Shown here: positions 2 to 60,043 of the stretch, piece by piece
Layout of the letters: each line of letters starts with the position of its first letter
Numbering within the stretch: position 1 is the first letter of the stretch
Assembly: GCA_021734945.1 (NCBI GenBank)
Contig: JAIPIA010000001.1
Span: 308,415-372,414 of the forward strand
Direction: 5' to 3'
Length of the DNA stretch: 64,000 nucleotides
From: Minisyncoccota bacterium
Lineage (GTDB): Bacteria > Patescibacteriota > Minisyncoccia > Phycocordibacterales > CAIZLB01
The notes under the pieces: generated by a model
What the model saw: the letters and a program-made list of their open reading frames with translations, nothing else
Told to the model about the DNA's origin: nothing
The model's database searches: none
Made by a program: the position numbers and the translations under genes

Positions 2-850
2 CCATGTTCGAATATTTTGGTTGTATTTCTTCCTTCTCTCAATGATGTAAGTAAACTCGTTACAGAAATTGTACCCTTCAAACCAGATAGTCTCGAAACA
101 TACGATGATAAAAGTATGATTTTGGCTGTACGATTCTTCTTTGATTTCTTTAAACAACTTGGTTTTTGGGGTGCTATCAAGCTTGGATTACAGTTTATTC
201 CTGAAACATGGATGATTATGATTGGTGGAGTTCCGAAACTTATTCTCATGATTGAATTTACTGGTGAAAATGAAGCTGATGTAAAAAGAAAATTGATGGA
301 AGTAGAACAGCAGATAAAGCACTTTGGTTTCCATATGCACATTGCACATTCAAGTGCTGAGGCAAATAAGTATTGGAAAATTAGACATGAGAGTTTCAAC
401 CTTCTTCGAAAGCATGTAAAAAACAAGAGAACTGCGCCCTTTATCGATGACATTATTGTTAAGCCTGAGTATTTACCTGAATTTTTACCAAAAGTAAAAG
501 CTTTACTTGATGAATATAAACTCGACTATACAGTTCAAGGCCATCTTGGAAATGGAAACTTCCACATCATTCCACTTATGGATCTCAACTCCCCTTTCTC
601 TGCCGATATTATTCTCGAGCTTTCTGCAAAGGTATATACACTTGTAAATGAATATCACGGTTCAATAACAGCTGAGCATAATGATGGAATTATTCGAACA
701 CCATATCTCTTGCAACAATACGGTCAAAACATTGTTAATCTTTTCCAAAAAACAAAAGAGACGTTTGACCCGCAAAACATTTTCAATCCAGGTAAAAAGG
801 TTGGCGGTACGTTCCAGAATATTAAGGATGCTATAAAGAAGAAGAATTAG
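2..850 (+). CDS. FAD-linked oxidase, C-terminal domain (GlcD / D-lactate dehydrogenase family); 5' end lies before the window
   Basis: The ORF is open from the window edge. The C-terminal block (GSITAEHNDG ... FDPQNIFNPGK) is typical of the FAD-oxidase C-terminal domain. Confidence 0.55.
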   Translation, partial: PCSNILVVFLPSLNDVSKLVTEIVPFKPDSLETYDDKSMILAVRFFFDFFKQLGFWGAIKLGLQFIPETWMIMIGGVPKLILMIEFTGENEADVKRKLMEVEQQIKHFGFHMHIAHSSAEANKYWKIRHESFNLLRKHVKNKRTAPFIDDIIVKPEYLPEFLPKVKALLDEYKLDYTVQGHLGNGNFHIIPLMDLNSPFSADIILELSAKVYTLVNEYHGSITAEHNDGIIRTPYLLQQYGQNIVNLFQKTKETFDPQNIFNPGKKVGGTFQNIKDAIKKKN

Positions 851-892
851 GATTTGTACCTTTTCAAGGTAAATTTAATTTAGTGAGAACAA

Positions 893-919
893 TTGGAAGT
901 GCCAAATTGGCACTTCCAA
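893..919. terminator. Perfect 13-bp-stem hairpin (TTGGAAGTGCCAA/ATTGGCACTTCCAA) between convergent genes
   Basis: Inverted repeat read directly; it lies between the stop of the + gene at 850 and the stop of the - gene at 948. Confidence 0.6.
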
Positions 920-947
920 TACAAAACACTAGACTGTAATATTTATA

Positions 948-1475
948 TCAAACTTTAAAGCCAATCTTATTCTTTGGCTTTTTATCCTCTTTTATAAGTA
1001 AGCGAATTACTCGGAAAATTTCTCTAAAATTTGTTTCATTATTCTTTTCCATTTCCTCGACTTTTTCACGGAGCTCTTTGTAGGTATCAACCATTCTTCG
1101 TAGTTTTGTAAATATACGTATTATCTGGATATTGATTTGAATGGCACGTTGACTATTTAAGACACTTGAAAGCATTGCAATTCCCTGTTCTGTGAAAGCT
1201 AGAGGCTCAATTCTAAGCCCTAATTTTAACCTTGAATTGGAGGTCACAAATTGTGACCTCCAATTATCTAGTTCCTCCTTGGTAAATTTAAACATAAAAT
1301 CATCTGGAAATCTTTCAATATTTCTTTTAACAGACTGTTTTAACACCTTAGTAGATGTTCCATATAGGACAGCAAGATCCATATCTAACATCACCTTACC
1401 ACCTCTTATTAAGTAAATCCTTTCTTTAATCGTCTCTATATCTATTGCCGTTTCGATTTGTTTTTCTTTTTCCAT
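948..1475 (-). CDS. ORF6N-domain protein (phage antirepressor/KilA-N-like DNA-binding family)
   Basis: N-terminal segment IRGGKVMLDMDLAVLYGTSTKVLKQSVKRN..FPDDFMF..T..E matches the ORF6N domain pattern. It is the last gene of the minus-strand cluster. Confidence 0.55.
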   Translation of the reverse strand: MEKEKQIETAIDIETIKERIYLIRGGKVMLDMDLAVLYGTSTKVLKQSVKRNIERFPDDFMFKFTKEELDNWRSQFVTSNSRLKLGLRIEPLAFTEQGIAMLSSVLNSQRAIQINIQIIRIFTKLRRMVDTYKELREKVEEMEKNNETNFREIFRVIRLLIKEDKKPKNKIGFKV

Positions 1476-1552
1476 TTTCAGATACTAGCAAAAGTTCCCT
1501 TAAGGAATCTTAAAGAAATTATAAAGAACATTCCAATAATTTATTATTGCTC

Positions 1553-2197
1553 TTACATCTCATACCCTTCAAGCTCCTTAGCAACCTGCTCAACTTTTTT
1601 AATGTCAATTTCATTTAGAGAGATATTACACACTTCCTGAATCTGCTTTTCCAGCACTAGAGCAAGCTGTTTTTTCTTTTCAGTTTTTTCTACATCAGCA
1701 AGCGCGTGCTGACTACCCGCATATCTTCGAATAACCTCATCAAATCGCTCTTCCACAGATACAATTCCTGTAGGAGCAACTCTAAAATCTGAATACGAAC
1801 AAAGTTTTATATACAAATCATCTAAATCTACCGTCAGGTGAAGTCTTGAACTACCAATATTCTCTAGAATATATAGTACTTTTTCAGGAACATTCAATTC
1901 ATGAGCAATTGCCATTGTGACCGTATGTTCGTTATCTCCATATGATTTGATAAATTCCTCAACTCTTCGCAATTCCTTTCTCTCTTCTTCTGTATATAAA
2001 ACATCGTTTGCAATTGGAGACTTAATAATATTGCCCATATCATGAAGCAACATGGCTTTTGTAACTAAATCTATATCTAGTTGAATCTCATGTTTTAATG
2101 ATTGAACAAGAATTCGTGCAACTGCAGCCACGCGATACATGTGATTTCTGAGGACACTTGGTATCTGATATTTTGCGTATATTTCGGAGGTTTTCAT
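1553..2197 (-). CDS. HD-domain phosphohydrolase (YfbR-like)
   Basis: HD motif LLHDMGN with an upstream H (RNHMYRVAAVARIL). It starts 5 bp after the upstream gene stop, so it is probably operonic. Confidence 0.6.
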   Translation of the reverse strand: MKTSEIYAKYQIPSVLRNHMYRVAAVARILVQSLKHEIQLDIDLVTKAMLLHDMGNIIKSPIANDVLYTEEERKELRRVEEFIKSYGDNEHTVTMAIAHELNVPEKVLYILENIGSSRLHLTVDLDDLYIKLCSYSDFRVAPTGIVSVEERFDEVIRRYAGSQHALADVEKTEKKKQLALVLEKQIQEVCNISLNEIDIKKVEQVAKELEGYEM

Positions 2198-2202
2198 GGG
2201 TT

Positions 2203-2745
2203 TTAATTAAATTTGAAAAACTTTTTAACACTCCAGACTTCATTCTCAAATTTCATTAAAGCTATATTATCAAAAAATGATTCAAAATGTTGTAATTCTT
2301 TCGTTTGTAAATATGCAAATATTTCATCTGACTGACTCTGATTCATATGTCGAGCAATAGATATGTGAAATATCCGTTTTGCGAATTTTCTATCCTCATC
2401 AACTTCTCCCAGATCAGAAATACAGCCTTCAATAGTTTTCTCAAATATTGAGCCTCCTTCAACTTTCATGAAAATTGTCTCAAAACTGTTTTCAAAACGA
2501 TTAAAACCACTAATAATAAAAGGTGCAATACTCGTTTTTCTTAGACTAAAATCATTAACAACAGATTGAATTTTTGACTCAATTTCCATAGTATCATCAA
2601 CTTCAAAGGGATACTTTAAAGTAATATGAGCAGGAACTCTTTTTGATAAATTGGAAATACCAAACTGAGCACTCAATTCTTCTGTTAGTTTTTGGAAATA
2701 TTTTTGAACTTCCTCGTTTGCTATATAGGCGATACAGTGTCTCAT
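2203..2745 (-). CDS. 2H phosphoesterase superfamily protein (LigT / 2'-5' RNA ligase / cyclic phosphodiesterase-like)
   Basis: Two H-x-T/S motifs (AHITLKYPF and HISIARH) at the spacing typical of 2H enzymes. Confidence 0.6.
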   Translation of the reverse strand: MRHCIAYIANEEVQKYFQKLTEELSAQFGISNLSKRVPAHITLKYPFEVDDTMEIESKIQSVVNDFSLRKTSIAPFIISGFNRFENSFETIFMKVEGGSIFEKTIEGCISDLGEVDEDRKFAKRIFHISIARHMNQSQSDEIFAYLQTKELQHFESFFDNIALMKFENEVWSVKKFFKFN

Positions 2746-3365: not shown

Positions 3366-4751
3366 CTAATCTTTTAAAAAATAATTATTTATTTCATTAA
3401 AAATTTCTATAATTCTCGCTTCATATTTCGTTTTTATATTTTTACCACTGGTATCAATTAATCCACTGACACCGTCTCTATGTTTAACTTCAGGTTTATC
3501 TCTAATATCGTTAGTGGGGATACATACAAAATTATATTTAGGAAATTCCTTACTGAGCGAACATGCTAAACTAGACATATTATTATCTAGTATGGATGTA
3601 ATTTTTTTAAAACCTAAATCTTCAAGCATTTTAATTACTTTTCGTGTATTTGGGGCACCTCCAACGCCCCACCCATAAAATACTCCATTAGTCTGAATTT
3701 GTTTTATTTCAAGAATCTTATTTAAAAAGACAACGTCTTCTTGTCCTTCTGTTAAGATTATATTATCTTCAAGAAAGAAAATTTCACTAGCATCCAAACC
3801 GAGAATATGTGGATTATTTAAGTTATCTAAAAAAGGAGTAATATCATTAGTGGTTTTTTCTTCTAATTGATAAATTTTTGTTCCAGAAGTCTCTTTAACT
3901 GTTCTTGCAATTCGTCCACCGTTTAAAATTGAAGGCCAACTGACAAAAAAAGGAGAATGAGTAGAGATTATGATTTGTCTATCTTTTGAATATTCTAAAA
4001 GTAATTTTAATAATTTTCTTTGGAGTGACGGATGTAACGACAACTCTGGCTCGTCAATAAATATTAAGTCTTCAGATCGACTATCATACAAAGCATCAAC
4101 AATTGTAAAAACACTCAATAATCCTTCTCCGGCCCCGTCGCTATTATGAGAAGAATTATCATTAATAAACTTTAAATAATAATTTCCATTATCTGCCTGA
4201 TCAATGTTCCAGTTCGGAGAGTATCCTAAAACTTTACTCAATTCCGAATTAAAAGTTGTTGGATCTTTTTGGATTTGGAAAAGTCTATGTGAAAAATTAT
4301 CAAACTGTGAACCTCTAACTGCTTGTAGATTTGAAGTGCTAATATATTGGTTACGATCATAAATACTTTTACCAAAAAATGGGCTGAATGTTCTTCTTGA
4401 TGGTAAAGTTAAGAATTTTACTTTCTCTTTTTCAAGTTTATTTGAAATATACTCTGTTTCGCTTCCTCCATTAGATGTTGTTTTAAGAGTTAAGCTATTA
4501 TCGTCTATGTCGAAAATTGATATTTCAATTTTATCACCAGCTATTTTATTTCTTTTACCTTCCGTAAAGCTCGGGGTTTGATTTTGGGATATAGCTCTGA
4601 ATGCCTCATAAATTGTTGATTTACCGGAGTTATTAGGGCCAACAATAACTGTCAATCCACTACCATTATTTCCATTTTTTGGTACAGCAATATTTAACGT
4701 TTGCTTTTCATTAAAACCTCTTAAGCCTAAAATTTCTATTTTTTTGTACAT
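3366..4751 (-). CDS. OLD-family ATP-dependent endonuclease-like protein (N-terminal ABC-type ATPase + C-terminal Toprim-like region; GajA/OLD-like)
   Basis: Walker A GPNNSGKST, Walker B/D-loop LIFIDEPELSLHP, H-loop ISTHSP, then an acidic ILTEGQEDVVFL Toprim-like segment. The likely start is MYKKIEIL (4751); the longest ORF reaches 4787. Confidence 0.6.
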   Translation of the reverse strand: MYKKIEILGLRGFNEKQTLNIAVPKNGNNGSGLTVIVGPNNSGKSTIYEAFRAISQNQTPSFTEGKRNKIAGDKIEISIFDIDDNSLTLKTTSNGGSETEYISNKLEKEKVKFLTLPSRRTFSPFFGKSIYDRNQYISTSNLQAVRGSQFDNFSHRLFQIQKDPTTFNSELSKVLGYSPNWNIDQADNGNYYLKFINDNSSHNSDGAGEGLLSVFTIVDALYDSRSEDLIFIDEPELSLHPSLQRKLLKLLLEYSKDRQIIISTHSPFFVSWPSILNGGRIARTVKETSGTKIYQLEEKTTNDITPFLDNLNNPHILGLDASEIFFLEDNIILTEGQEDVVFLNKILEIKQIQTNGVFYGWGVGGAPNTRKVIKMLEDLGFKKITSILDNNMSSLACSLSKEFPKYNFVCIPTNDIRDKPEVKHRDGVSGLIDTSGKNIKTKYEARIIEIFNEINNYFLKD

Positions 4752-4803: not shown

Positions 4804-4904
4804 TGGTTGCGGAGATGGGATTTGAACCCATATCTTTTCCTTTCGAAAAGCTCTAAATAAAAGCTCTTTGAAAGAGAAAGGTGCTACCATTACACCACTC
4901 CGCA
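4804..4904 (-). tRNA. Atypical 101-nt tRNA-like gene (canonical acceptor, D and T arms, encoded CCA; best register gives anticodon UUC with ~31 nt where the variable arm belongs)
   Basis: Acceptor TGCGGAG/CTCCGCA, T-arm ATGGG-TTCAAAT-CCCAT, D-arm GTGT..GCAC. The anticodon arm TTTCT-CTTTCAA-AGAGC closes with only about 4 pairs. There is an internal 9-nt direct duplication AGAGCTTTT. Confidence 0.45.
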
Positions 4905-5186
4905 ATATATATGTTATACCTCAACAGCTCCTCTCAGTCCATCGATATAAAACTAGCTGGCGGGCCCACTCGTCCTCGGTCGTTACACGACCAGTATAGC
5001 TTTTGGATATTCTGTTCGTCTCGCTGGCTGCCCTATTTTCAATACCCGCAGTATACACCCGAAAGTGCCTCAACTCCAGAATATATTCAAAAGCTTTTCT
5101 CCTCCTCGCCGAAAGCGCCCCACGCTTTCTTGGTCCATTTCTGGAGCTAAAAAACCACCCAATAAATTGGATGGTTTTTTGCTCTG

Positions 5187-5258
5187 CGGGCCCACGAGGA
5201 CTCGAACCTCGAACTGCGCGTTTGGAGTGCGATGTTTTACCATTGAAACTATGGACCC
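5187..5258 (-). tRNA. tRNA-Trp (anticodon CCA) with an imperfect anticodon stem
   Basis: Acceptor GGGTCCA/TGGGCCC, D-stem GTTT/AAAC, T-arm CGAGG-TTCGAGT-CCTCG, anticodon loop CTCCAAA. The anticodon stem has 3 central pairs plus 2 terminal mismatches. An intrinsic terminator follows at 5150-5186. Confidence 0.55.
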
Positions 5259-54780: not shown

Positions 54781-54940
54781 CGGACTATTCTATCATATTT
54801 TGACCATTTTTGACCTTTATTATATCAATATTTTGGTCATATTTTGCGTTTTTTTCAAAAAATGTTATATTATTCGCCATCGCTTGGACATACGCACATT
54901 TGTCCAAAATGGGCTTCTAGAGCTCAAAATACGCGATTAT

Positions 54941-55012
54941 GGCCCTATCGTCTATCGGTTAGGACATCGCCTTTTCAAGGCGAGAAGCGGAGTTCGACTC
55001 TCCGTAGGGTCA
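54941..55012 (+). tRNA. tRNA-Glu (TTC)
   Basis: Acceptor GGCCCTA/TAGGGTC, anticodon arm TCGCC-TTTTCAA-GGCGA, T-arm CGGAG-TTCGACT-CTCCG. Confidence 0.8.
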
Positions 55013-55199
55013 CAGGTCAAAATAAAGACACGTCGTAAGGCGTGTTTTTATTTTGCACCCTCGTGGAACTAAGCAAGCCAACTGCTTGGCTTGCGTCGGA
55101 GAGTCGAAAAGGTTCTCCCATATTTTCGAGAAATGAGCAAAACAATCCAATGGTGCGAATTTTGAGAAAATGGGAAACCTGCACTGGTCCTGTAAGGAC

Positions 55200-55218
55200 C
55201 GACTCTCCGTAGGGTCAC
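55200..55218 (+). repeat. 19-bp exact copy of the tRNA-Glu 3' end (CGACTCTCCGTAGGGTCAC), att-like
   Basis: Identical to 54994-55012 of the tRNA, 188 bp downstream. The intervening DNA carries the inverted repeat CGGAGAGTCG/CGACTCTCCG and hairpins. Confidence 0.65.
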
Positions 55219-55334
55219 CATTGACGGATACTATAATACATGTTAAAAATCTTAACAGATGGCGTTTAGGGTTGCTTTAAGGAAGTAACTTATTATTTCT
55301 TGCAAGCATCTTTAAACCTCAACCACATATTGAC

Positions 55335-55640
55335 ATGATCGTTTCCAAATCAATTCAAATTCAACTTGATACCTCCTCTGGAGAGCCCCTCATCAAAATG
55401 ACCGTAGGTAGCGATACTTACATACAATTAACTGTAAAATCGGGTATTCTTGCGGCAGCAATAGCGGCACAACTCGTCAATCTAGGCGCAAAAGACCCTA
55501 TTCTAGGCGTTGCCTTCGATTATGCCGCTACCGTGGCTCAAAACGCACTTGTCGTCTTCGAACCGCTGACAAAAGCACCCGTAGGGCTTTACCTTCGGGA
55601 AGAAGACTTCGTGAATTTTCACGACGCATTCAACCTCTAA
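55335..55640 (+). CDS. Hypothetical protein (101 aa), GC-rich, followed by a terminator
   Basis: ORF plus terminator CACCGACCCAGCGGTGTTTTTTT. Confidence 0.4.
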   Translation: MIVSKSIQIQLDTSSGEPLIKMTVGSDTYIQLTVKSGILAAAIAAQLVNLGAKDPILGVAFDYAATVAQNALVVFEPLTKAPVGLYLREEDFVNFHDAFNL

Positions 55641-55861
55641 TAAATTAGACCACTGGGAAGTCTTCTTAATACAACTTCAACTTAACACCGACCCAGCGGT
55701 GTTTTTTTATATGCTTAAATCCCTACCAGCCTCTGCCACCCCGTAAATTCTTCCACAATATGGTTCCAATTCCCTCTAACTTAGTTCAAATATTTCATAC
55801 CACTCCCAGAAACACACATTAAAATACAAAAGCTATTCAAAAATTTGATACAATTATCTAT

Positions 55862-56293
55862 ATGAAAAAAATAAAAGTTGAAGTGACTGTAAATGCCGAT
55901 ATTAAAAAAGTGTGGGAGCACTGGAACAATACAGAAAGTATTAAAGGTTGGGCATTTGCGAGCGACAGTTGGGAATGTCCGTACGCAGAAAACGATCTAA
56001 AAAAAGGAGGAAGATTTCTAACAAGAATGTCTGCAAAAGACGGCAGTGAGACTTTTGATTTTACTGGTATATACACTGACGTCGTGGAGTATAAAAATAT
56101 AAAATATCTAATGGACAAAGCAGACGGTGAGAATCAACACAGAGAATGTGAGATTATCTTCACTGATTTAGGTGATGGTACTACCAAGATTGAGGAAGAA
56201 TTTTATCCTGAAGAAATTAATAGTGAGGAAATGCAAAAAGGTGGATGGACAAGTATTCTAGAAAACTTCAAGAAATTTGTTTCGAATAATTAA
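55862..56293 (+). CDS. SRPBCC-superfamily protein (AHSA1/START-like)
   Basis: ~140 aa; VEVTVNADIKKVWEHWNN ... GGWTSILENFKKFV pattern. Confidence 0.55.
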   Translation: MKKIKVEVTVNADIKKVWEHWNNTESIKGWAFASDSWECPYAENDLKKGGRFLTRMSAKDGSETFDFTGIYTDVVEYKNIKYLMDKADGENQHRECEIIFTDLGDGTTKIEEEFYPEEINSEEMQKGGWTSILENFKKFVSNN

Positions 56294-56379
56294 TCTTTGA
56301 AAAGATTCACATCCTTTTGAATTTCTTGCAAACGTTTTCTATTTTTAAATTCCCTATTACAACGTACCAGGTCTTTTAT

Positions 56380-56745
56380 CTATTCCCTCTCCTGCTCTTC
56401 CAACTTCACAGCGGCTTCTGGAGTAGATACAGATTTGCCCATGAGAAATAAATTAATTATTCCAAGTGCAACAATCCAATACACAGCCATCGCTAGTAAT
56501 GTTGTCCATTCAAATATACTTCCAGCTACGATATGGCTACTCTGAAAAACTGTGAGAAATGGTGTTGCAAACACATATGTAATACCGTACACAAAACTAC
56601 TAAATCCCGCTTCAGGATTTGCTCCTAATAATTTTAAAATAAAACGAAACGCGAGCAATACTTCAATTATTCCGAGAATATAATAAACAATTTGAGTTCC
56701 ACGATAGAGGTGTTTTGTACTTGATGCGTTGTAAGATGAATTCAT
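56380..56745 (-). CDS. Small polytopic membrane protein (YggT-like?)
   Basis: ORF plus TM segments. Confidence 0.35.
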   Translation of the reverse strand: MNSSYNASSTKHLYRGTQIVYYILGIIEVLLAFRFILKLLGANPEAGFSSFVYGITYVFATPFLTVFQSSHIVAGSIFEWTTLLAMAVYWIVALGIINLFLMGKSVSTPEAAVKLEEQERE

Positions 56746-56995
56746 ATATAAAAAATTTATTTAATAAGTTTAATTGTTCAAATTACTCAATCCAAATTGT
56801 GTGAGATTTAATATTTGAACCTGCTTACTAAAGAAGCCGCTGTATTGGAGAATATATTACTTGTGCGTGTATAAAAAAGAAAAAATGATGGTCATGTTTA
56901 TTAAAAAATATATGAAAGTGAAGCCGCCACAGTCCAGAAAATCTGGGCCGGGCGGCTCTACGTAGTTTCGATGGAGTTTACTAAGACGGCACACA

Positions 56996-57853
56996 TTAAC
57001 CTTCTGGCAAGTTAAACGTCGTGCGCCAATTTGGATCGGCGTGCATATCTTTGAAAGTTGGCAACCTAGATGGGGTAACAACCTTACCTACCAGTGACGG
57101 CGGTACGGCGAATCCATTGAGAGGCACGGCACGGCAGGGCGTTTCGTCCTCTTGTTCCAATTCCATGACAACATCTTCTTGCTTAACACAGACTGACAAA
57201 ATAGTCTGAGGATCTCTCAAGGACATATAGTAAGTAAGATGCTCTTCAGCCAAACCAAAACTCATAGCCTTAATCTTCCCCTTGTCTAAGACCAACTGCC
57301 AAACTATGAAAACCCTTTTGACACTTTCGCCAACCGTCAACTTGTCTGCAAACAGGATTAGCACTTGCTTGTACTTTTTAAAGCGTTCGACAAGGTCATC
57401 TCGAAAAGCCTCTCCGCAATCTTGGTCGTTGACCAGCATAGCGAAAGATGACCAATCAAGTGGAGCGTATATTCCATCGCTCCAGACTCTGTTCATAGCT
57501 TCAAAAGCTTGTCCTACCGTAGTTGGACAACCACCTTCACTTGCGATGGTAAGTGGATTATCCAGCAGACGTGTGTGAAGCGTTGCTTTGGGGTGGATGA
57601 ATTGAAATCCATACTCCCCTTGTTTGATTCCAGCATCGGGGACTTTTATAACCCTTTTGAGTTCACTGAACAGTCGAGGTACAAGGACCGGCATACTGAA
57701 GTCGAGCAAGAAGTTATCAAGCCCTGGACCCGCAGCAGGTTCTCCTATTTCAACGAAATTGCCAGCAGGTTTTTGAGGCTTTGTTTTCCACTTCTCACAT
57801 GCCCATTCCAAAAACTCCGGATGATTTTGCAAAGAACTATCTGCGTTGCTCAT
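56996..57853 (-). CDS. Hypothetical protein; GC-rich ORF
   Basis: ORF only. Confidence 0.4.
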   Translation of the reverse strand: MSNADSSLQNHPEFLEWACEKWKTKPQKPAGNFVEIGEPAAGPGLDNFLLDFSMPVLVPRLFSELKRVIKVPDAGIKQGEYGFQFIHPKATLHTRLLDNPLTIASEGGCPTTVGQAFEAMNRVWSDGIYAPLDWSSFAMLVNDQDCGEAFRDDLVERFKKYKQVLILFADKLTVGESVKRVFIVWQLVLDKGKIKAMSFGLAEEHLTYYMSLRDPQTILSVCVKQEDVVMELEQEDETPCRAVPLNGFAVPPSLVGKVVTPSRLPTFKDMHADPNWRTTFNLPEG

Positions 57854-59616: not shown

Positions 59617-59641
59617 TTCGGCCTCCGAGAAAACCCCGTTA
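59617..59641. terminator. Bidirectional terminator AAAACCCCGTTAAGGGGTTTTTG
   Basis: Read directly. Confidence 0.6.
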
Positions 59642-60043
59642 AGGGGTTTTTGATTTTAAAAATAATTTTATAATTGAAGAATTTATTCTAGAAAAATCTT
59701 CATTATTTAAAGTACAAATTTTTCTCAATAATCTGAGTGAGCTTACACACTTAATTTGAGTAAGTGACACCCAAGCAACAGTTGGATTTTCAATTCTAGT
59801 GTAATGAGGACTATTTGTTTTATCTTTAGTGGTGAGCGGTAATACCCAAAGCATTAAACCATTAAACTTGTTGAGAATTAAAACAGGTCTTTCAAACTTA
59901 CTGTTCTTTCCATTCGATTCAACACCAATATTGGTACCTATTGAACACCACCAAATTTCTCTCTCAGAAAAATAGAAGTCTTGGAGGATTTTCTTATCTA
60001 TCTTCTGCTTCTCTAAATTCCACAGATCAAAATCTTTCTCCAT
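59639..60043 (-). CDS. PemK/MazF-family toxin-like protein (solo; no antitoxin ORF upstream)
   Basis: ERPVLILNKFNGLMLWVLPLTTKDKT block resembles the MazF core. Confidence 0.45.
   Translation of the reverse strand: MEKDFDLWNLEKQKIDKKILQDFYFSEREIWWCSIGTNIGVESNGKNSKFERPVLILNKFNGLMLWVLPLTTKDKTNSPHYTRIENPTVAWVSLTQIKCVSSLRLLRKICTLNNEDFSRINSSIIKLFLKSKTP

Follow-up and report, generated by a model that had tools for sequence, protein, structure and literature searches.

A structured element in the tRNA-Glu 3' trailer of a Minisyncoccota bacterium, with closing helices that copy the end of the neighbouring tRNA and candidate relatives across the Patescibacteria

The repetition of a tRNA 3' end a short distance downstream of the gene recalls several described systems. 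In the attachment-site (att) duplications made by islands and prophages that bear an integrase, and in cis-mobilizable elements (CIMEs), which are att-flanked but have no integrase of their own, a direct repeat of the tRNA 3' end that starts in the T-loop encloses an element that is polymorphic and can form tandem arrays. In the attP(+) site of the CTX phage and the attC site of integrons, inverted arms fold in a strand-specific manner to imitate a double-stranded target. Transfer-messenger RNA (tmRNA), the Y RNA YrlA, MALAT1-associated small cytoplasmic RNA (mascRNA) and viral tRNA-like structures reproduce the coaxial stack of acceptor stem and T-stem with its discriminator and often CCA, and have ends that are plausibly processed by tRNA enzymes. 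Small RNAs from tRNA 3' external transcribed spacers (3' ETS), such as 3'ETS-leuZ of E. coli, lie in tRNA trailers on the tRNA strand, and repetitive extragenic palindromic doublets forming hairpins (REPINs) and miniature inverted-repeat transposable elements (MITEs) are non-coding, about 150-200 nt long, bounded by terminal inverted repeats and often found beside terminators. Here we describe a locus that resembles each of these in part. It lies in a 64,000-nt stretch of the genome of a Minisyncoccota bacterium (contig JAIPIA010000001.1; hereafter the window), in which the end of a tRNA-Glu gene is repeated downstream, and an earlier note had taken this repeat for the scar of an integrative element. 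We find that the distal repeat is best explained as belonging to a structured element of ~165 nt (55056-55220) in the tRNA-Glu 3' trailer, whose closing helices take their 3' strand from it, and we propose, with moderate confidence, that the element is a functional RNA with a clamp that mimics the acceptor/T-stem stack of the neighbouring tRNA.

The locus also departs from each of its counterparts. Unlike integrase duplications and CIMEs, it has only 186 nt between the repeats, no integrase or remnant of an integrative and conjugative element, a folded interior that is under purifying selection and an extra, inverted copy of the att core. It shares with the CTX phage the order of the integrated form, but there is no XerCD/dif or IntI context, and its arms copy a tRNA end around a non-coding element of ~200 nt. 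In contrast to the tRNA-like RNAs, there is no mimic of a T-loop or D-loop, the arms are identical to the adjacent tRNA, and there is neither an Rfam match nor linkage to rsr or smpB. The 3' ETS small RNAs are short, unstructured sponges released by RNase E, whereas here a terminator intervenes and the fold is closed. Compared with REPINs and MITEs, the arms vary and equal the neighbouring tRNA, the members lie almost only 3' of tRNA genes (the one exception is L072; L-numbers denote loci retrieved in our searches), and dispersed near-identical copies are absent, with two matches in the 64 kb that have different arms. Two further identities were considered and rejected. The junction sequences brought to mind a three-way-junction ribozyme such as the hammerhead, but the element lacks the core motifs and Rfam gives no match. 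Tandem interspaced guide RNA (TIGR)-Tas arrays consist of ~36-nt tandem units with box C/D motifs and two 9-nt spacers, adjoined by a Nop-domain Tas gene (PMC12045711), whereas the element is a unit of ~165 nt with paired 19-nt arms, and a scan of its neighbours revealed no Nop-domain protein.

The duplication itself is exact, non-random and tied to the tRNA 3' end, as first noticed. The 19-mer CGACTCTCCGTAGGGTCAC has two exact copies in the window, at 54995-55013 and 55200-55218, a search for a third found none even when 3 mismatches were allowed, and none of 100 shuffles contained two matches. The gap, earlier put at 188 bp, is 186 nt (55014-55199), with a start-to-start distance of 205. The tRNA-Glu gene ends in ...TAGGGTC-A-CAG and hence does not encode CCA; the distal copy is followed by CA to give ...TAGGGTC-A-CCA where the tRNA gene instead has ...TCA-CAG. 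The locus contains not two but three copies of the tRNA end, arranged in the order copy A in the tRNA, the terminator, copy B (inverted, the left arm), an interior that we call the cargo, and copy C (direct, the right arm). The inverted repeat that the earlier note had seen in the spacer, CGGAGAGTCG at 55097-55106, is real and belongs to copy B, which corresponds to the tRNA copy along 12 nt that take in the entire T-loop (TTCGACTCTCCG at 54993-55004 with CGGAGAGTCGAA at 55097-55108) and to the distal copy along 10 nt only. The terminator seen in the spacer is likewise real, with arms at 55018-55032 and 55041-55055, and the hairpin reported with it also exists, although its length is 9 bp rather than 8 (55073-55081 with 55086-55094, closed by a CUGC loop).

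The region 55056-55222 folds as one closed three-way structure with a z-score of -5.8, and none of 200 shuffles was equally stable. This structure consists of a short acceptor-like stem, the CUGC side hairpin, a 10-bp stem in which CGGAGAGUCG in the T part of the left arm pairs with CGACUCUCCG at 55200-55209, and an inner domain made of the long hairpin P2, the junction UGCACUG and the hairpin P3. The acceptor part of the left arm is degenerate in the window (CACCCTC), and other members have the full GUGACCCUA. In this fold model, the pairing of copy B with copy C would rebuild the acceptor/T-stem stack of tRNA-Glu, with the cargo in the place of the T-loop. Both strands of the T-stem of tRNA-Glu (the 5' strand being CGGAG), its acceptor 3' strand and its discriminator do recur in the element, and the earlier note had itself named a degraded tRNA-Glu paralogue as the alternative to an att site. 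We consider such a pseudogene scarcely credible, as the Rfam tRNA model gives no match in 55014-55222 at E ≤ 10 and ARAGORN predicts nothing there, the D and anticodon arms are lacking, the left arm of other members complements the 3' end by Watson-Crick pairing and is not a copy of the tRNA 5' strand (for example, GACCCTA vs GGCCCTA in L028 and GGGCGAT vs GGGCGGT in L018), and the same design is found at other isotypes.

Comparison of homologous elements shows that the structure is conserved. A MAFFT alignment of 6 members has compensatory changes in 15 of the 37 predicted pairs. When 15 members were aligned to the covariance model described below, 93.1% of the cells pair, compared with 72% in column shuffles and 40-50% with slid partners, and double-sided changes occur in 26 of the 37 pairs, but these pairing figures are inflated by the fit of the alignment to the model. 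The six-member figure is the safer of the two because the MAFFT alignment is independent of the model. With the same caution, in the 15-member alignment helix 1, the side hairpin, is 100% paired with compensatory changes in 7 of its 8 pairs, and helix 6, P3, is 98.6% paired with such changes in 4 of 5; helix 2 of this alignment is the T stem of the left arm and helices 3-5 make up P2. G·U or U·G cells outnumber A·C or C·A cells by 22 to 6, and G·U pairs also occur in the clamps of L033, L069 and L070. The folded strand is therefore the tRNA sense strand, given this excess of G·U over A·C. The element thus has both the compensatory changes and the strand-specific G·U pairs that mark a conserved structured RNA.

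Three syntenic species, represented by L073, L077 and L081, were reached through homologues of the upstream UPF0259 protein; the protein encoded upstream is 100% identical to one from a Candidatus Pacebacteria MAG. They have the common gene order TrxR, Na/H antiporter, tRNA-Val, UPF0259, tRNA-Glu, a slot of variable content, YGGT, a 285-aa protein and TsaD, with an identical tRNA-Glu sequence in all three. The amino-acid identity among relatives is about 90% for TrxR and 78-85% for TsaD (91% and 85%, respectively, for L073), and the tree is roughly ((window, L073), (L077, L081)). The idea of comparing the tRNA-Glu locus of related genomes for occupied and empty sites was borne out in that both exist: the element is present in L073-L076, where the 19-mer is repeated exactly as in the window and the terminator, which in L073 aligns as a hairpin at the same position, is homologous, and it is absent from L077/L079 and L080-L082. 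Between the window and the sister species L073, GGAGAGTCGAAAAG and a 36-nt block (ACTG from 55183, P3 and the right arm) are invariant; the tRNA promoter region, the tRNA and the terminator are also conserved, and P2 has diverged with compensation such that its pairing is kept. Directly past the right arm the identity falls to random. Two parts have been lost in L073, namely the side hairpin and, in the left arm, the acceptor part. The invariant 36 nt and the compensated P2 amid randomised flanks argue for purifying selection and not for a decaying scar, the interior of which would be expected to evolve neutrally.

The reading first given to the repeat was that of a decayed or excised tyrosine-integrase element, a passive att scar that might be the edge of an island reaching to 57853. 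The direct repeat of the tRNA 3' end and the variable gene slot past it are what such a reading would lead one to expect, and genuine-looking decaying scars do occur in relatives as a degenerate second copy after a CCA-bearing tRNA-Glu (L077, L006 and L054). We now regard it as very unlikely for the window. The spacer is under purifying selection with heavy covariation and belongs to a family found downstream of many tRNA genes, there is, as was said at the time, no integrase nearby, and no repeat marks a distal boundary. Specifically, neither integrase nor recombinase was found near the tRNA-Glu element, where the neighbours are FtsZ, TrxR, the Na/H antiporter, UPF0259, ORF101, AHSA1, YGGT, TsaD, PemK and LeuRS, or near a second element in the window (see below), and no att copy was found at the distal end of the variable slot. 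Of the cargo once suspected to extend to 57853, only 55335-56293 is variable; 56380-57853 holds conserved genes that are syntenic in all four relatives. The GC content of 55000-56000, 0.40-0.43, is inside the local range of 0.29-0.46. Gene content changes exactly past the distal 19-mer copy, and the slot is occupied by DsbB in L073, by an unrelated 184-aa gene in L077 and by nothing in L081; ORF101, one of its two genes in the window, has no Pfam match. A degenerate copy running from the T-loop to the 3' end (consensus GCTAGTTCGAGCACTCGAGAAGGGTCA) lies 10-20 nt past tRNA-Glu or past an element in L077 (~3625-3660, minus strand), L006, L054, L069 and L072. These copies look like decaying att scars; the repeat in the window is perfectly kept.

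The element is a member of a family. A scan of one genome per species with the tRNA 3' 24-mer retrieved 53 loci, all from Patescibacteria, and many of them have a recognisable homologous element downstream of tRNA-Glu; a metagenome scan returned only 4 loci. A covariance model built from six aligned Glu-type elements finds further members 3' of tRNA-Trp in the window, of tRNA-Ser(ACU) in L030 and of tRNA-Val in L035 and L018, the arms of which are not Glu-like and correspond to the 3' end of the immediate upstream tRNA and its complement. The same three-way fold is present in members with other cargo, with z-scores of -9.2 (L018, Val), -5.3 (L027, Ser) and -7.2 (L030, Ser). At least three cargo types lie between tRNA-matched arms: type 1 is that of the window, type 2 consists of the hairpin GGGGUCGCG...GUGACC, sometimes joined by another that has a GA/GA internal loop, and type 3 is found in L033 and L053. 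None of the three is matched by Rfam. The cargo is in this sense interchangeable. When 12-mers were sought within 250 nt downstream of 96 non-redundant tRNA genes from Patescibacteria loci, the inverted T-loop/T-stem 12-mer was found at 16, the direct acceptor 12-mer at 15 and both at 12, with 0/92 and 0/92 in the upstream control. The right arm is followed by CCA in at least five members where the tRNA gene itself has none. About one third of the right arms bear CCA and 17 of 88 non-viral tRNA genes (~19%) encode it, and the encoded CCA, considered as a sign that the right arm is the displaced original tRNA end, proved not to be decisive.

The model matches only two sites in the window, both 3' of tRNAs. 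The second, behind tRNA-Trp, has cargo of the window type (AAAAGCUUUUG...CAAAAGC UAUACUG GUCG-UGUAA-CGAC) and a right arm that ends, like tRNA-Trp, in ...TGGGCCC-G-CCA. The T part of its clamp no longer pairs and it is counted only as a degenerate member because its fold, with a z-score of only -1.15, is no better than that of shuffles. We could not find the family in any catalogue. Searches of Rfam 15 gave no match to the element at E ≤ 10 in the window and only tRNAs in 18 related loci, and the literature searched does not describe such elements. A different structured element, here termed X, also has no Rfam match even at permissive thresholds and lies 3' of tRNA-Glu in L030 (~195-270) and L035 (~5110-5215), and it is also seen in L020, L019, L040, L008, L016, L023, L025 and L026. 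A GGA/GA internal loop marks its first hairpin (GCC-GGA-GCC...GGC-GA-GGC), and its second is GGGGUCGCGA...UUGUGACC with G·U pairs; the fold has a z-score of about -4 to -4.5, and X occurs both with and without tRNA-matched arms. The features of the window that bear on the argument are collected in Table 1.

Table 1. Coordinates of the tRNA-Glu locus, the parts of its trailer element and the second member in the window
Feature	Position	Strand	Basis or description
tRNA-Glu(UUC) gene	54941-55013	+	ARAGORN; Rfam RF00005 tRNA, 55.4 bits
Copy A of the 19-mer	54995-55013	+	T-loop C56, T-stem 3' strand, acceptor 3' strand, discriminator, +1 C
Bidirectional intrinsic-terminator hairpin between tRNA and element	55018-55055		15-nt arms 93% complementary; fold; minus-strand terminator call
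Left arm, acceptor part ACCCU	55057-55061	+	Pairs with AGGGU 55211-55215 (minimum free energy fold)
Side hairpin GCAAGCCAA-CUGC-UUGGCUUGC	55073-55094	+	Where the D and anticodon domains would branch off in a tRNA
Left arm, T part CGGAGAGTCGAA	55097-55108	+	Exact reverse complement of T-loop + T-stem 3' strand
Cargo helix P2, long irregular hairpin with variable tip	55111-55179	+	Sequence diverged, pairing kept
Junction UGCACUG and hairpin P3 (GUCCU-GUA-AGGAC)	55180-55199	+	Conserved; P3 abuts the distal 19-mer
Right arm: copy C of the 19-mer (55200-55218), then CA	55200-55220	+	Acceptor 3' strand, discriminator A, CCA
Variable slot	55221-56379		Begins directly past the right arm; ORF101 (55335-55640), AHSA1/SRPBCC gene (55862-56293)
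Second, degenerate member	4953-5143	-	36.2 bits, E = 8e-8; directly 3' of tRNA-Trp 5186-5258 (-)

The results above show how the element folds and covaries and on which strand, that it is under purifying selection and that it belongs to a tRNA-linked family with interchangeable cargo. On this basis we now put forward a hypothetical mechanism for how the element may be transcribed and processed and what kind of cellular role it may have. We propose that transcription on the tRNA strand reads through the terminator into the element, which would then act as a folded RNA. The left and right arms would pair to form the acceptor-stem/T-stem stack of the neighbouring tRNA, including the discriminator and, in this case, CCA, with the cargo in the T-loop position and the side hairpin where the rest of the tRNA would emerge. 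Such tRNA-like ends may allow RNase P, 3' trimming and the CCA-adding enzyme to define and stabilise the element, and it would be the cargo that carries the activity.

Several observations weigh against this proposal. The first group concerns expression and the strength of the alignment: no promoter-like site was found between tRNA-Glu and the element, a strong terminator intervenes, and the 15-member pairing figures are, as noted, model-fitted. The second concerns the arms. That the right arm must equal the tRNA is not explained by RNA function alone, and in L069 and L070 the right arm tracks lineage-specific variants of the tRNA (TGGGGTC and TTCGATT) while the left arm lags behind and shows bulges or G·U pairs. 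In L073 the right arm has kept its acceptor part identical to the tRNA despite the loss of the pairing partner, and in many cases the left arm complements the tRNA and its trailer better than it does the right arm, examples being L028, L030, L053 and the window (12 vs 10 nt). Some members (L073 and L027) can dispense with the acceptor-like stem and the side hairpin, and the tandem arrays in L043, L070, L031 and L053, together with the patchy presence of the element, fit a mobile element as well.

The relation of the left arm to the tRNA and its trailer also raises the possibility that the arms are by-products of template switching that have no function, in which quasi-palindrome switching at the terminator hairpin made the left arm and a second switch, around the next hairpin, the direct copy. 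In several members, for example L053, L028, L030 and L018, the left arm directly adjoins the terminator palindrome and complements the tRNA and its genomic trailer, and switching of this kind would fit the arms to any tRNA automatically. It leaves unexplained, however, the conserved cargo with its compensatory changes and the 36-nt invariance amid randomised flanks, the CCA past the right arm does not reproduce the tRNA trailer, and the same cargo recurs in distant lineages. We consider it improbable.

The mobility suggested by arrays and patchy presence is the essence of an alternative that we judge to be rather unlikely but still a serious rival, namely that the element is a miniature, non-autonomous integrative cassette. 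The 19-mers would be the attL and attR cores with crossover in the T-loop, and the tRNA end would be a folded att site. A recombinase encoded elsewhere would insert a unit of core, linker, left arm and cargo at the tRNA 3' end; the left arm would let the single-stranded or transcribed element fold, thereby mimicking the double-stranded end of the tRNA gene; and the structured cargo would be either its passenger or something that it requires to propagate itself. By analogy with the CTX phage, the order of copy A, linker hairpin, inverted copy, cargo and direct copy is that predicted for a dumbbell-shaped circle with a folded att site. The identity of the copies always begins in the T-loop at C56, the right arm carries the tRNA variants of the host lineage, and the left arm is contiguous with the terminator palindrome, with a 22-bp perfect stem in L053 and the same arrangement in L028, L030 and L018. 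Tandem arrays occur: in L043 a 145-bp unit is present in two exact copies, L070 has three units whose linkers are unrelated, and L031 and L053 each hold two different elements. The element is present or absent among syntenic relatives, homology to L073 stops exactly at the right arm with gene content that varies from there, and one cargo type is found at different tRNA isotypes as different cargo is found at one tRNA. Elements with a large serine recombinase also target the tRNA-Glu 3' end in this phylum (L048 and L045).

In those loci, and also in L012 and L032, the last ~13 codons (...LVTLRRVELRF) of the large serine recombinase (Resolvase, Recombinase and Zn-ribbon domains) are antisense to the tRNA-Glu 3' end. 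The gene occupies 803-2518 (+) in L048, where tRNA-Glu is at 2478-2552 (-), and 548-2128 in L045, where tRNA-Glu is at 2088-2162. By virtue of this overlap the attachment site is inside the recombinase gene; these copies of tRNA-Glu encode CCA.

Set against an integrative cassette is, first, the lack of a recombinase near either element in the window. Scans of viral contigs, of little information in themselves, yielded no copies of the element: the tRNA-end 24-mer found one phage tRNA cluster (L001) with no element, the left-arm 15-mer gave 14 chance matches with no model match and no tRNA, the P3 18-mer gave 0 matches, and the CUGC-hairpin pattern gave 17 chance matches inside coding regions. 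A single gain or loss fits the tree of the four syntenic species, such that no repeated mobility is seen among them. L030 and L050 share the linker hairpin and carry different cargo, which contradicts the linker and cargo moving as one unit, and retargeting would need both arms to change together. In addition, we know of no precedent in bacteria for a replicating circle of ~200 nt, and we count this against a cassette.

The functional trailer RNA remains the reading that we favour, and we can tentatively suggest a broader framework in which Patescibacteria have a modular system of small structured cassettes, with at least three cargo types, that are placed 3' of tRNA genes between a copy and an inverted copy of the tRNA end. 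These might be either miniature mobile elements with a folded hairpin att site that imitates the end of the tRNA gene, or a masked-antisense, tRNA-specific RNA device in which the clamp opens on a signal sensed by the cargo.

Some further features of the window and its relatives should be noted. A perfect 7-bp inverted repeat, TTGGACA-N10-TGTCCAA, lies at 54884-54907, ~35 nt upstream of tRNA-Glu, and may be an operator or promoter element because it is kept in L073 within a promoter region that is ~85% identical; the motif ATATTTTGACC is repeated further upstream, at 54785-54854. Downstream, the gene at 56996-57853 (-) encodes the 285-aa protein, which has no Pfam match and is 68% identical in L077 and 28% identical to its counterpart in L081, a divergence that, compared with the 80-95% identity of YGGT and TsaD, suggests very fast evolution or non-orthologous replacement. 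A PemK/MazF-type toxin gene at 59639-60043 (-) adjoins tsaD, and a PemK gene is at the same position in L081. In two Saccharibacteria loci, L013 (3073-3783, minus strand) and L044, a 236-aa open reading frame with no Pfam match lies between tRNA-Glu and tsaD as another occupant of the variable slot 3' of tRNA-Glu. At the other end of the window, 4807-4904 (-) matches the Rfam tRNA model with 56.7 bits and was missed by ARAGORN. The anticodon loop of this tRNA is interrupted directly behind position 37, where introns canonically lie, by a 28-nt insertion in which the direct repeat AGAGCTTTT occurs twice; its apparent anticodon is UUC and its acceptor stem, GCGGAGU, is unlike that of the tRNA-Glu at 54941.

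To our knowledge almost nothing has been learned of RNA biology in the Candidate Phyla Radiation. If the elements are RNAs, they would form an uncatalogued, conserved family of non-coding RNAs in this radiation, and one of unusual design in which a clamp copied from the neighbouring tRNA surrounds an exchangeable cargo. If instead they move, no smaller integrative cassettes that target tRNA genes would be known, and they would demonstrate that the end of a tRNA gene can serve as the basis of a folded-hairpin att site. Either way, duplicated tRNA 3' ends in these bacteria are not automatically the scars of integrases, and this matters for the tools that are used to predict genomic islands.

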